IMG/VR virus record: IMGVR_UViG_2693429524_000011
Length of the DNA: 8,999 bases
Strand: one strand, 5' to 3'
Origin: a virus
Lineage: Duplodnaviria; Heunggongvirae; Uroviricota; Caudoviricetes
Shown here: piece by piece, positions 4,042 to 6,950 of the stretch
Layout of the letters: every line of letters begins with the position of its first letter
How positions within the stretch are numbered: position 1 is the stretch's first letter
Notes under the pieces: model-generated
Databases searched by the model: none
Told to the model about the DNA's origin: nothing
Seen by the model: only the letters and a program-made list of their open reading frames with translations
Program-made: the position numbers and the translations under genes

Positions 4042-4257
4042 TTACTGCGAAAGTTTGTTAATGGAAAGGAAGCCGCCAAAGTTGCCGACGTTATTGCGAA
4101 ACTTACAGCCACTCAGGCATTTGCTGCATTTATCCTTCGTGATATCGGACGTTGTCTGGTCATATTCATCCGCGACCGCCGGACCGTGATAACCGCACTC
4201 ATCGCCGCGATAGGTCCAGGTGCAGGTGTTGGCCAACATGATACGTCCCGGAAAAAC
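4042..4257 (-). pseudogene. L: C-terminal ~72 codons of tail tip protein L (Cys-rich Fe-S region), left by an internal deletion
   Basis: Minus-strand translation ...VFPGRIMLANTCTWTYRGDECGYHGPAVADEYDQTTSDITKDKCSKCLSGCKFRNNVGNFGGFLSINKLSQ* is recognised as the lambda gpL C-terminus. The N-terminal ~160 codons are absent. The listed 148-aa ORF 4042..4488 is this frame running on into antisense of the A 3' end. Confidence 0.8.
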
Positions 4258-4277
4258 AGTTCTTCCTGTCGCGTCAT
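4257..4277 (-). other. W: Deletion junction: first 7 codons of head protein W (ATG overlapping the A stop as ATGA) fused out of frame to the L remnant
   Basis: Minus strand reads ATGACGCGACAGGAAGAACTG (MTRQEEL, the lambda gpW N-terminus) and then runs straight into L-derived sequence GTTTTTCCGGGACGTATCATG. The W frame continues as a 54-codon nonsense ORF ending at TGA around 4113-4115. Confidence 0.8.
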
Positions 4278-6199
4278 TCATCCTCTTCGGATAAGGCACG
4301 GGCGTATTCTGCCAGTGTTTTCTTGTTGGTTGCTGCACCATCCTCTTCCTGCAGGCTCGCCAGCAGTGCACTGAGATCCAGCTGCCAGCGGGAAATACTG
4401 ATGCGCAGCGCCGCCAGCGCATAAACGAAGCAGTCGAGCGCCTCATTGCGTCGCTTTTTGCTGTCCCACAGTATTTTTTTCCTGCCATCCACCCATTTTT
4501 CGACCTGCTCTTCAGCAGTCAGCTGCTGCGCTTCGGTCAGATCAAAAATATCCGGGTTATTCGGGAAGTGAACGGCACCGGGAAGCGGTTCATCCCCTTC
4601 CGGCGTCAGTGTGAAGCGGTTATAAATTTGCTCTTTCGCGGTATCCGTACCGATTTCGGTAAGGTAAACCCCGTTTTTGTTTCGCTTACGAGGCATGCTG
4701 GCCACCGGCTTACCGTAGACGGATGCCCCTTTAATGGGGATCACCCGGAACAGCCCATGTTTTTTCGAGCGTTCATACACAATGGTCGGGTCAATCCCGC
4801 CAGTATCCCAGCAGATACGGGATACCGACATTTCTGCACCATTCCGGCGGGTATAGGTTTTATTGATGGCCTCATCCACACGCAGCAGCGTCTGTTCATC
4901 ATCGTGGCGGCCCATAATAATCTGCCGGTCAATCAGCCAGCTTTCCTCACCCGGCCCCCATCCCCATACGCGCATTTCGTAGCGATCCAGCTGGGAGTCG
5001 ATACCGGCGGTCAGGTAAGCCACACGGTCAGGAACGGGCGCTGAATAATGCTCTTTCCGCTCTGCCATCAGCTCGGCATCCGGACGTTCACCGATTTTCG
5101 CTTCCCATGTCTCACCGAGCGTGGTGTTCACGAAGGTTTTACGTTTTCCCGTATCCCCTTTCGTTTTCATCCAGTCTTTGACAATCTGCACCCAGGTGGT
5201 GAACGGGCTGTACGCCGTCCAGATGTGAAAGGTCACACTGTCAGGCGGTTCAATCTCTTCACCGGATGACGAAAACCAGAGAATGCCATCACGGGTCCAG
5301 ATCCCGGTCTTTTCGCAGATATAACGGGCATCAGTAAAGTCCAGCTCCTGCTGGCGGATGACGCAGGCATTATGCTCGCAGAGATAAAACACGCTGGAGG
5401 GGTCATCCGGCGTCCATTTGAGGCCAAACGGCGTCTCTTTGTCGCCAAATTTAAGATACTGCTCCTCCCCGCAGTGCGGGCAGGCAACATGAAAACGCAT
5501 AAAATGCGGGGATTCACTGGCTGCACGCTCAATCTGACAGGTGCCTCTCACTTTGGGCGTGGAGCCACGGATGGACTTTGGCCAGACCGAGCCTTCAATA
5601 CGCTTATCGCCCAGGAACGTCGGAGAGCCTTCCTGTTCAATATCATCATCAAAGGCAGCAAGTTCATCATAACCCGCCACATCCACTGACTTTTCACGGT
5701 AGTTTTTTGCCGCTTTACCGCCCAGGCACCAGAAGCCACGACCATTGGTGAAACGCTTCATGGTGAGCGTGTTATCCCGGTGCTTTTTGCCATACCACGG
5801 AGCCAGCGCCAGCAGCGACGGAATATCACGGATGGTCGGCTCAACGTGGGTTTTCATGAAGTTTTCGGCATCGCCATCCGTCGGCAACCAGATAAGGGTG
5901 TTGCGCTGCTTATGCTCTATAAAGTAGGCATAAACACCCAACAGCATTTTGGAATAACCGACACGGGCAGACTTCACCACATTCACCTCACGGATGTAGT
6001 CGCTGCCCATCGCATTCATGATGGCCCGCTGAAAGGGCAGTGTTTCCCAGCGCCCTTCCTGGTATGCGGATTCTTTCGGGAGATAGTAATTGGCATCCGC
6101 CCATTCAACGGCGGTCTGTGGCTCCGGCCTGAACAGGGCACGAAGCCCGGCGCGGACAAAATGCCGCAGCCTGTCAACCTGACTGTTCGATATATTCAC
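4274..6199 (-). CDS. A: Terminase large subunit (641 aa), apparently intact
   Basis: ORF-track protein MNISNSQVDRLRHFVRAGLRALFRPEPQTAVEWADANYYLPKESAYQEGRWETLPFQRAIMNAMGSDYIREVNVVKSARVGYSK... is recognised as lambda gpA, full length, with the P-loop KSARVGYS. It overlaps Nu1 by 26 nt as in lambda. Confidence 0.95.
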   Translation of the reverse strand: MNISNSQVDRLRHFVRAGLRALFRPEPQTAVEWADANYYLPKESAYQEGRWETLPFQRAIMNAMGSDYIREVNVVKSARVGYSKMLLGVYAYFIEHKQRNTLIWLPTDGDAENFMKTHVEPTIRDIPSLLALAPWYGKKHRDNTLTMKRFTNGRGFWCLGGKAAKNYREKSVDVAGYDELAAFDDDIEQEGSPTFLGDKRIEGSVWPKSIRGSTPKVRGTCQIERAASESPHFMRFHVACPHCGEEQYLKFGDKETPFGLKWTPDDPSSVFYLCEHNACVIRQQELDFTDARYICEKTGIWTRDGILWFSSSGEEIEPPDSVTFHIWTAYSPFTTWVQIVKDWMKTKGDTGKRKTFVNTTLGETWEAKIGERPDAELMAERKEHYSAPVPDRVAYLTAGIDSQLDRYEMRVWGWGPGEESWLIDRQIIMGRHDDEQTLLRVDEAINKTYTRRNGAEMSVSRICWDTGGIDPTIVYERSKKHGLFRVIPIKGASVYGKPVASMPRKRNKNGVYLTEIGTDTAKEQIYNRFTLTPEGDEPLPGAVHFPNNPDIFDLTEAQQLTAEEQVEKWVDGRKKILWDSKKRRNEALDCFVYALAALRISISRWQLDLSALLASLQEEDGAATNKKTLAEYARALSEEDE

Positions 6200-6719
6200 T
6201 CAGCAACCCCGGTATCAGCTCATCCAGCGCGGCTGCTTTGTTCATGGCTTTGATGATATCCCGTTTCAGGAAATCAACATGTCGGTTTTCCAGTTCCGGA
6301 AAACGCCGCTGCACCGACAGGGGGATCCCGTCGAGAATACTGGCAATTTCACCTGCGATCCGCGACAGCACGAAAGTACAGAATGCGGTTTCCACCACTT
6401 CAGCGGAGTCTCTGGCATTCTTCAGTTCCTGTGCGTCGGCCTGCGCACGCGTAAGTCGATGGCGTTCGTACTCAATAGTCCCTGGCTGGAGATCTGCCTC
6501 GCTGGCCTGCCGCAGTTCTTCAACCTCCCGGCGCAGCTTTTCGTTCTCAATTTCAGCATCCCTTTCGGCATACCATTTTATGACGGCGGCAGAGTCATAA
6601 AGCACCTCATTACCCTTCCCACCACCTCGCAGAACGGGCATTCCCTGCTCCTGCCAGTTCTGAATGGTACGGATACTCGCACCGAAAATGTCAGCCAGCT
6701 GCTTTTTGTTGACTTCCAT
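6174..6719 (-). CDS. Nu1: Terminase small subunit (181 aa)
   Basis: ORF-track protein MEVNKKQLADIFGASIRTIQNWQEQGMPVLRGGGKGNEVLYDSAAVIKWYAERDAEIENEKLRREVEELRQASE... is recognised as lambda gpNu1. It sits immediately downstream of cos. Confidence 0.95.
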   Translation of the reverse strand: MEVNKKQLADIFGASIRTIQNWQEQGMPVLRGGGKGNEVLYDSAAVIKWYAERDAEIENEKLRREVEELRQASEADLQPGTIEYERHRLTRAQADAQELKNARDSAEVVETAFCTFVLSRIAGEIASILDGIPLSVQRRFPELENRHVDFLKRDIIKAMNKAAALDELIPGLLSEYIEQSG

Positions 6720-6729
6720 TGCTCATTCC

Positions 6730-6950
6730 ACGGACAAAAACAGAGAAAGGAAACGACAGAGGCTAAAAAGCCCGTTTTCAGCACCTGTCGTTTCCTTTCT
6801 TTTCAGGGGGTGTTTTAAATAAAAACATTAGGTTACGGCGAAGAAGAACGGAAACGCCTTAAACCGGAAAATTTTCATAAATAGCGAAAACCCGCGCGCC
6901 TTCCGCCCCGTAACCTGTCGGATCGCCGGAAAGGACCCTAGAAATGATAA
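6730..6950. promoter_or_regulatory. cos: cos site: cosB R elements, cosN nicking region and the probable cosQ region
   Basis: Three copies of the CGTTTCC/GGAAACG core are present in the lambda R3-R2-R1 arrangement: plus-strand ggaaacg at 6749-6755 and 6850-6856, and cgtttcc at 6789-6795. The cosN-like sequence, read in phage orientation, is gttacgGGGCGGAAGGCGcgcgggttttcgctatttatgaaaattttccgg, with the 12-nt cohesive-end equivalent at plus 6897-6908. Sequence distal to cosN (6910-6950) resembles the lambda right-end/cosQ region. Confidence 0.85.

Follow-up and report, generated by a model that had tools for sequence, protein, structure and literature searches.

The window, that is, the whole stretch of 8,999 bp that was analysed, is an entire draft contig (CYFD01000096.1 of GCA_001284405.1), both ends of which are repeats, IS1203 at one end and the J gene at the other. 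The contig covers the late region of a lambda-like prophage that is integrated in an Escherichia coli strain at the Rac/ttcA site. The remainder of the element can be followed only in a closely related strain, Z1323CEC0019 (99.8% identical; complete chromosome NZ_CP148401.1), which shows no differences from the window over positions 5538-8999. The prophage of the relative lies at ttcA, where intR/xisR are found, with a 15-bp att core repeat on both flanks, and its gene order is collinear with that of lambda, as befits a defective lambdoid prophage. Its int and xis are intact, its replication genes are annotated as complete, lom, tail-fibre genes and a holin gene are also annotated, and genes for NleG-type (DUF1076) effectors are located at its far end. 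The element spans ~34.5 kb between the att cores, which amounts to ~71% of the length of lambda. A sibling prophage in strain UTME-12 has the same att core, ATACAACCTGAACAA, and exhibits the reciprocal loss: its early region is gone, and the structural genes are kept in a complete Nu1-A-W-B-C-D-E-FI-FII-Z-U-V-G-T-H-M-L-K-I-J series.

The packaging genes of the window are encoded on the minus strand. Nu1, the terminase small subunit (6174-6719, 181 aa), is matched by Pfam PF07471 (Phage_Nu1) over positions 1-164 of 164 (E = 9e-101) and shares 180 of its 181 residues with the lambda protein, leaving one difference; the protein is identical in the window and in Z1323CEC0019. A, the large subunit (4274-6199, 641 aa, GTG start; PF05876 and PF20454), has both the GpA_ATPase domain (E = 2e-50) and the GpA_nuclease domain (E = 3e-74), and 635 of its 641 residues are those of lambda (six differences). 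The original prediction, which described both frames as full length with an intact P-loop and conserved overlaps, was accurate on each of these points: both reading frames are full length, the Walker A motif KSARVGYS occupies gpA residues 76-83, followed by a Walker B motif, VAGYDE, from residue 174, the Nu1/A overlap is 26 nt, as in lambda, and the A stop codon overlaps the W start codon in the lambda manner (ATGA). The C-terminal tail of gpA, to which portal docking has been ascribed (PMC9026076), is present and carries two replacements, the uncommon D631E and, four residues from the C-terminus, G638E, which is private to the window contig and one further locus (L012). The exact gpA allele is recorded in one contig only, the window.

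It had also been proposed that the substitution pattern in A and Nu1 among related strains might reveal purifying selection. Between the two carriers, the window and Z1323CEC0019, five codons of A differ, four synonymously and one non-synonymously (G638E), and none differ in Nu1. A nominal signal of constraint, 4:1, is thus obtained, but it is better attributed to gene conversion: four of the five sites are polymorphic among lambda-like prophages in any case, with both alleles in circulation, and such shared standing alleles point to conversion from other prophages. Constraint on A after the deletion was accordingly rejected as a reading of this ratio, since five sites are all that it draws on and gene conversion confounds it.

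Upstream of Nu1, also on the minus strand, lies a lambda-type cos region. The packaging-termination subsite cosQ (6932-6938) is an exact match to the lambda heptamer GGGTCCT, and its spacing to cosN is that of lambda. The cosB subsite (6744-6856) comprises R3 (6856-6841), the I1 region (6830-6813), R2 (6800-6785) and R1 (6759-6744); its R elements are identical to those of lambda, the three strings that were taken as lambda's recurring unchanged in the aligned lambda sequence, and I1 is at the lambda spacing. From cosN to the start of Nu1 the alignment with lambda is free of insertions and deletions. The cosN site itself (6897-6908; aligned with lambda and UTME-12), the 12-nt cohesive-end sequence, is a rare right-half variant, which reads GGGCGGAAGGCG where lambda has GGGCGGCGACCT, the two differing at bp 7, 8, 9, 10 and 12; the left half, GGGCGG, and the flanking bases are identical to lambda, and the right half, AAGGCG, differs. 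The presence of cosQ-, cosB- and cosN-like sequences, as originally predicted, is therefore borne out, on the minus strand, but the cosN sequence is not that of lambda.

The variant cosN is probably functional, judging from its sequence and distribution. In IMG/VR it is carried by 14 contigs, whereas at least 120 have the canonical sequence, and some prophages whose W-B-C and later genes are intact possess it as well. Lambda-like phages commonly differ from one another in cosN bp 7-12, and such differences are reported to be tolerated by lambda TerL with little effect on cleavage (PMC4669245). A dead cos was considered and appears unlikely, since the allele is carried by head-intact prophages and the changes fall in the half reported as tolerant (PMC4669245). 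Evidence for a nuclease specificity matched to the variant was likewise not found, as the 10 variant and 36 canonical loci are not told apart by any residue of gpA or Nu1. The terminase, if expressed, would be predicted to cut its own cos.

Immediately beyond A the lambda order is broken. All that remains of the head-tail joining gene W is a stump, W' (4258-4277, minus strand), of its first ~7 codons, which ends at a junction 20 nt beyond the A stop codon and abuts 'L (4042-4259, minus strand), the last 73 codons of the minor tail protein gene L, matched by Pfam Phage_tail_L over 129-206 of 206. The junction falls at codon 160 of the 233 codons of L, the first 160 being lost, and 'L is out of frame with W' and has no start codon of its own; in the relative it is annotated by RefSeq as a partial pseudogene of L beside the terminase gene. 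Intact relatives match the window on the A-W side as far as 4258 and on the L side as far as 4259, the two positions forming a 2-bp microhomology, CT. Against the UTME-12 sibling the window aligns as two blocks abutting at 4258/4259, and the missing interval corresponds to positions 22356-33640 of locus L002, 11,285 bp, a single event relative to the sibling prophage. The genes lost extend from most of W to FII, and further through Z, U, V, G, T, H, M and two thirds of L. That no head genes remain is thus true, yet as a description it is incomplete, because the genes of the tail shaft were lost together with those of the head.

The arrangement is best explained by one illegitimate-recombination event, guided by the 2-bp microhomology, that joined W codon 7 to L codon 160. 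The deletion removed all the head genes and most of the tail genes; cos, Nu1 and A are located just beyond its boundary.

The rarity of the junction indicates how the preserved terminase should be read. The W'-'L junction, which is spanned by the 33-mer GCGACAGGAAGAACTGTTTTTCCGGGACGTATC, is present in a single complete E. coli genome out of 5,426 and in one IMG/VR contig, in none of 241 million metagenome records and in no GTDB species-representative genome, and no carriers beyond L012 came to light among the metagenome contigs, the GTDB species-representative genomes and IMG/VR. The evidence favours a recent deletion, private to one small lineage. Since the carriers are nearly identical, intact reading frames are expected in them without selection, and the integrity of cos, Nu1 and A would reflect too little time for neutral mutations to accumulate rather than maintenance. 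The alternative raised in the original prediction, that the terminase genes have had too little time to decay since the deletion, is the one favoured by the rare junction and the near-identity of its carriers. The element is thus very probably a defective lambda-like prophage which underwent one recent, neutral deletion, and not a satellite; packaging, if any, would be at most a chance by-product.

Damage elsewhere in the element fits this reading. The lysis cassette is interrupted by IS1203 (IS3 family), an end of which (8874-8999, plus strand; 100% match to the IS1203 ends in locus L001) is where the contig stops. Of the lysis genes only the C-terminal fragment of an Rz-like spanin remains (8710-8844, minus strand; positions 111-154 of 154 in phrog_13), and the annotation of the relative likewise gives a partial lysis protein adjoining IS1203. 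A second IS1203 is found in the early region of the relative, beside a truncated nuclease gene, so that in the relative one insertion has put the lysis cassette out of action and the other interrupts the early left operon. The prophage is thus decaying in several places. On the other side of the junction, and also on the minus strand, the tail-tip genes K (3293-4036; tail tip assembly protein, with JAB and NlpC/P60 domains by Pfam and the annotation of the relative) and I (2754-3329; tail assembly protein, Pfam Lambda_tail_I and gene calls) are intact, and J (1-2693; tail tip/host specificity protein, by its translation and Pfam families) is represented by 897 codons of its N-terminal part and runs off the end of the contig. 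An in-frame deletion of 96 bp near 615-627 sets this copy of J apart from close relatives; the translation contains no stop codon.

Comparable remnants give no sign that the terminase is preserved when the head is lost. Among 13 IMG/VR remnants in which a deletion runs from near cos to the tail tip, 11 have their left breakpoint within Nu1 or A, and the other two have it after A. Three further E. coli remnants, of the cryptic kind at the Qin and DLP12 sites in which cos stands beside nohA or nohD, resemble the window in having packaging- or head-to-tail-tip deletions that spare cos and Nu1; they differ from it in that one is cut in A, one in W and one in the portal gene B, whereas the window breaks 20 nt past the A stop codon. 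Strain 789 harbors the only other head-less, terminase-intact remnant among those examined, and this remnant, too, is private to one of the 5,426 genomes.

An element which is not adapted to mobility may nevertheless be mobilised passively at low frequency, by excising and replicating upon induction, having its cos cut by its own lambda-type terminase or that of a helper, and entering the heads and tails of co-resident prophages, whereby its effector cargo could be spread. Helper packaging of defective lambdoid prophages is already known in E. coli O157, where, among Sakai prophages with head or packaging defects, Sp4, Sp9, Sp13 and Sp15 were packaged and Sp6 was transferred (PMC2669165), and by analogy it is plausible here. 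Like the present element, the Sakai Sp prophages are lambda-like, carry effector cargo and exhibit deletions and IS insertions in their morphogenesis and lysis genes; most of them encode an intact terminase, and related co-resident prophages can complement their defects (PMC2669165). The window is unlike them in having lost its entire head module and tail shaft in one block. Its sequence suggests a functional cos and terminase, the annotation of the relative shows int and xis intact and the replication genes complete, and the genome of the relative contains four lambda-type cos matches, this one and three further. Co-resident copies of a lambda-type cos, and with them potential helpers, are thus at hand. 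Any packaging would depend on co-resident lambdoid prophages for the proheads, the head completion proteins, the tails and lysis alike, and it would be an accidental by-product rather than an adaptation.

Several features weigh against such mobilisation. Lambda heads efficiently package roughly 78-105% of the genome length, and stable particles contain at least roughly 38 kb, the packaging range of lambda being roughly 38-51 kb. At ~71% of lambda length the element therefore falls below the lower limit of efficient packaging, and its ~34.5 kb from cos to cos is less than the limit for stable particles. IS1203 is situated between the late promoter region and cos, and gpA carries G638E together with D631E in the segment to which portal docking has been ascribed (PMC9026076). 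Passive mobilisation of this element is accordingly regarded as unlikely. Less likely again is a stronger version, namely that the element is still mobile, with heads, tails and lysis provided by co-resident prophages and with its own terminase cutting the rare cosN, whose 5-base difference would serve as a private barcode that prevents its chromosomes from joining to helper ends; a decaying prophage would then act in effect as a satellite and spread NleG effector genes.

The claim which opened the inquiry, that cos and terminase are retained without capsid genes as part of the strategy of an evolved, helper-dependent satellite, finds no positive support, and it is judged most improbable. According to this claim, the element would use its own cos and terminase to load its DNA into the heads of a co-resident lambdoid helper. 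It draws on the intact state of cos, Nu1 and A despite the absence of all head genes, on the intact int and xis of the relative, on the other lambda-type cos elements in the same genome, and on the rare cosN allele, which could in principle mark the ends of the element. The analogy is, however, inexact. Known cos-type satellites possess cos without a terminase, using the TerS and TerL of the helper as redirected by Rpp (PMC6739421, PMC9026076); cos-type PICIs such as EcCICFT073 resemble the window in their cosQ/cosN, similar to those of a lambda helper, and in the absence of capsid genes (PMC6739421, PMC6092414, PMC9026076), but they lack a terminase and carry their own cosB, an Rpp that retargets the helper TerS, and regulatory and replication modules. 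The cosB of the window is of the lambda type and not a distinct satellite cosB, and an enzyme of its own would be redundant, since any lambda-type helper terminase would recognise its cos. Terminase-encoding satellites, the cf-PICIs, share with the window the provision of their own packaging proteins; they are reported, however, to encode their own capsid as well, with all of the capsid proteins, and to borrow only tails (bioRxiv 10.1101/2022.09.08.507074), whereas the window has tail-tip genes only, and the capsid, portal and head-completion genes that characterize a capsid-forming PICI are here deleted (B to FII) or truncated (W). The combination of cos and terminase without a capsid is the architecture of no known satellite class.

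The gene content of the element argues in the same direction. The ORFs scanned from cos to the IS end comprise only phage families of unknown function, a DUF3950 gene, the Rz fragment (PHROGs, Pfam) and frames that match no family, and no Rpp-like, AlpA-like or capsid-size-redirection-like genes are found among them; likewise, no Rpp-like or other satellite-type gene is annotated in the prophage of the relative, outside the window by annotation only. The element is neither small nor free of structural and lysis genes, as K, I, J and the Rz fragment are present, and its ~34.5 kb are neither satellite-sized nor within the efficient packaging range of lambda. Two gene stumps, of W and L, flank the junction, and the tail-tip genes that remain are useless on their own once the tail shaft is removed. 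The junction is private to one lineage, so that its counts do not exhibit the conserved architecture that recurs across many genomes in a satellite, and most comparable remnants have lost their terminase genes. The private junction and the lack of satellite hallmarks thus speak against a helper-dependent, cos-packaged element.

The packaging module, considered by itself, remains that of lambda, with the same cosQ, R3, R2 and R1, the same spacings throughout and the same gene overlaps, and it departs from lambda in the truncation of W after ~7 codons and in the absence of B to FII. The junction on which this description depends has a negligible chance of being an artefact of short-read draft assembly, for although the window is a whole draft contig with both ends in repeats, the identical junction is found in the complete chromosome NZ_CP148401.1 and in an independent IMG/VR contig.

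For the defective prophage described here there is little significance beyond its correct annotation as one more lambdoid remnant. It does serve as a caution that intact reading frames beside a fresh deletion are uninformative about selection. Helper-mediated transfer, if it were true, would add one more example of O157-type complementation, relevant mainly to the spread of effectors.

The remaining contents of the window are unexceptional. The small gene of the YlcI/YnfO family (DUF3950; 7100-7285, plus strand; Pfam PF13132, phrog_949) is ordinary lambdoid late-region cargo. A plus-strand ORF of 483 aa (312-1763) was dismissed as spurious, as it matches no family and lies antisense within J. 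Between 6600 and 8999, promoter-like sites are as numerous as expected by chance, and five terminator-like sites are found against 2.4 expected, about two SD above chance.

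The window is the complete draft contig CYFD01000096.1 (assembly GCA_001284405.1), bounded by an IS1203 copy (8874-8999) on one side and ending inside the tail gene J on the other. A near-full-length match (99.8% identity) was obtained for a single one of 5,426 complete E. coli genomes, that of strain Z1323CEC0019 (NZ_CP148401.1), a chicken isolate that carries the matching prophage at the Rac/ttcA attachment site. The prophage of this relative measures ~34.5 kb between its att cores. In its gene order, intR and xisR come first, then the recombination, repressor and replication genes, the late-region genes and a holin gene; past an IS1203 within the lysis cassette come cos, Nu1 and A, a partial L, and K, I, J and lom, and after these the tail-fibre genes and three effector genes of the DUF1076 (NleG) type. 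The early region holds a second IS1203, adjoining a truncated nuclease gene. No endolysin gene is annotated in the relative between the holin gene and the IS1203, and thus the element is probably unable to lyse its host unaided. The window also contains, at 8710-8999, a C-terminal fragment of an Rz-like spanin directly beside the IS1203 end. The element is a defective lambdoid prophage of an ordinary kind in which a large internal deletion has recently occurred.

The packaging genes of the element closely resemble those of lambda. Nu1 (6719..6174, minus strand) codes for 181 aa, all but one of them identical in lambda Nu1, and covers the entire Pfam Phage_Nu1 model (E = 9e-101), while A (6199..4274, minus strand) codes for 641 aa with gpA ATPase and nuclease domain matches, and its product differs from lambda gpA in six residues. 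The latter exhibits a Walker A motif (KSARVGYS, residues 76-83) and a Walker B motif (VAGYDE, from residue 174), and the lambda-like overlaps are present, namely 26 nt between Nu1 and A and ATGA at the A stop and W start. Upstream of Nu1, on the minus strand, are located cosQ (6938..6932), the 12-nt cohesive end of cosN (6908..6897) and the R3, I1 region, R2 and R1 of cosB (6856..6744); from cosN to Nu1 the sequence aligns with lambda without indels. The original prediction of full-length Nu1 and A frames with conserved overlaps and P-loop, next to cosQ-, cosN- and cosB-like sequences, is thus confirmed, with the cosN allele and the loss of the tail shaft as additions. On sequence grounds, a working terminase and cos site are expected. 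Outside the defined cos subsites, ~70 bp upstream of cosQ (~7005-7010, minus strand), the window and Z1323CEC0019 share an 8-bp deletion (TAATTGAT) when compared with lambda and the sibling prophage of strain UTME-12.

The cohesive-end sequence, a detail absent from that prediction, is GGGCGGAAGGCG in the window and GGGCGGCGACCT in lambda. It is altered at bp 7, 8, 9, 10 and 12, i.e., five of the six right-half bases, despite a terminase 99% identical to that of lambda, and neither gpA nor Nu1 has a residue that co-varies with the variant. The variant is rare, occurring in 14 IMG/VR contigs versus at least 120 with the canonical sequence; a cos query carrying it matches about four complete E. 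coli records over its full length at ≥95% identity, and no sequenced phage isolate exceeds 93.7% identity over the full 95-nt query. In several loci it precedes intact W, B, C and later genes, and it also appears in an otherwise complete lambda-like prophage of strain APEC E14033. Feiss and colleagues found that cohesive-end differences at bp 7-12 are common in lambda-like phages and little affect cleavage by lambda TerL (PMC4669245). By mismatching canonical lambda-type ends at 5 bases, the variant might hinder the formation of mixed chromosomes.

The nature of the deletion is evident from the UTME-12 sibling (NZ_CP157095.1), which has the same 15-bp att core and the full Nu1-A-W-B-C-D-E-FI-FII-Z-U-V-G-T-H-M-L-K-I-J series. 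Against it the window resolves into two blocks, 615..4259 (99.6% identity) and 4258..7242 (97.3%), which overlap only in the dinucleotide CT and between which 11,285 bp are missing. About seven codons of W remain, joined in a different frame to the final 73 codons of L; such 2-bp microhomology with two gene stumps is the signature of random illegitimate deletion. The predicted absence of head genes holds in this comparison, and the same event also took away part of the tail tip together with the tape measure and tail shaft; the tail genes that are left, namely K, I, J and those for the fibres, are not enough to build a tail. At the same ttcA/uspF site, the sibling has kept its Nu1 to J structural module and lost its early region, an IS3-family element abutting its truncated integrase gene. 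This reciprocal decay indicates that the same ancestral prophage is eroding at different places in different strains.

Within the window, J exhibits an in-frame 96-bp (32-codon) deletion at ~615-627 (minus strand) compared to both Z1323CEC0019 and UTME-12. A short direct repeat flanks it and J remains open up to the contig end; the deletion could be genuine, or a repeat collapsed in short-read assembly. A 483-aa ORF antisense to J (312-1763, plus strand), where a public gene caller also predicts a gene, has no Pfam match and is most likely no real gene but a chance open frame of GC-rich coding DNA.

A deletion too recent for the terminase genes to have decayed, offered originally as the alternative, is the best explanation. 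A 291-bp junction query is fully covered in only one of the 5,426 complete genomes. The exact 33-mer junction was recovered from one IMG/VR contig, L012, which mismatches the window at a single position; 241 million metagenome records and the GTDB species-representative genomes contain no copy of it. The window and Z1323CEC0019 show zero differences over 5538-8999, the other substitutions being nine in J, one in K and five in A. At four of the five A sites both alleles are already present in other lambda-like prophages, which points to gene conversion among the many prophage copies that such genomes contain, rather than new mutation, as the probable source. The proposed comparison for purifying selection on A and Nu1 after the deletion therefore yields no usable signal, as four A sites are standing alleles and the lone private change is non-synonymous. 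This change, G638E (codon 638, window 4285-4287), lies four residues before the gpA C-terminus and is the sole private one in the terminase, being found only in the window contig and L012, with G in 36 of 36 canonical-cosN loci and in the other 8 variant-cosN loci. The extreme C-terminal segment of gpA reportedly docks onto the portal (PMC9026076), and G638E may be the first neutral or damaging change after head loss. Since so little divergence has elapsed, two intact frames totalling 2.4 kb are exactly the neutral expectation.

Head-less remnants do not tend to keep the terminase. In thirteen IMG/VR loci with a lambda cos, a deletion starts close to cos and reaches into the tail-tip genes; 11 of them have the left breakpoint within Nu1 or A, and just two, one of which is the window lineage, have it past A. 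Three further remnants, from complete genomes, have their breakpoints in A (strain 1332KP), W (strain 789) and the portal gene B (strain MEI1O2-23). The strain 789 remnant (locus L139, 8264-8345, Qin site) is independent and head-less with Nu1 and A intact. Only 17 codons of its W are left, directly followed by the C-terminal half of H, the tape-measure gene; this junction, too, is private (1/5,426 genomes). From these breakpoints and private junctions, the terminase-intact, head-less state looks like a rare, short-lived outcome of scattered deletions.

Low-level passive mobilisation of the element via co-resident prophages is conceivable, given three further lambda-type cos matches in the relative's genome and the precedent of those defective O157 prophages with head or packaging defects for which packaging, and in some cases transfer, through complementation by co-resident prophages has been demonstrated (PMC2669165). 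If true, this would be a case of a documented phenomenon and no new kind of element.

An evolved helper-dependent, cos-packaged satellite, the headline of the original prediction, is not supported. Retention of cos and terminase without a capsid is not the logic of the known cos satellites: E. coli cos-type PICIs possess cosQ and cosN and lack terminase, relying on their own cosB and on Rpp, which binds and redirects the helper TerS (PMC6739421, PMC9026076), and capsid-forming PICIs, at least as outlined in bioRxiv 10.1101/2022.09.08.507074, encode all their own capsid and packaging proteins and borrow tails alone. In contrast to the PICI type, cosB of the window is of the lambda type, such that any lambda-specific helper terminase would recognise it, and the element's own terminase does not provide exclusive access. 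The ORFs scanned from cos to the IS end include no Rpp-like or other hijacking gene, and neither do the annotations of the relative's prophage. Stable lambda particles need roughly 38 kb, and the ~34.5-kb element is below this minimum as well as too large for a typical satellite. A relative of the window's prophage family does appear to harbour a satellite: in the variant-cosN prophage of APEC E14033 (NZ_CP126948.1, locus L142, 26188-38489) the major capsid gene is split by an ~11-kb insert resembling the helper-embedded satellites of PMC10111431, which encodes an integrase, HTH regulator, Icd-like protein, primase and SSB as well as major capsid and decoration proteins of its own.
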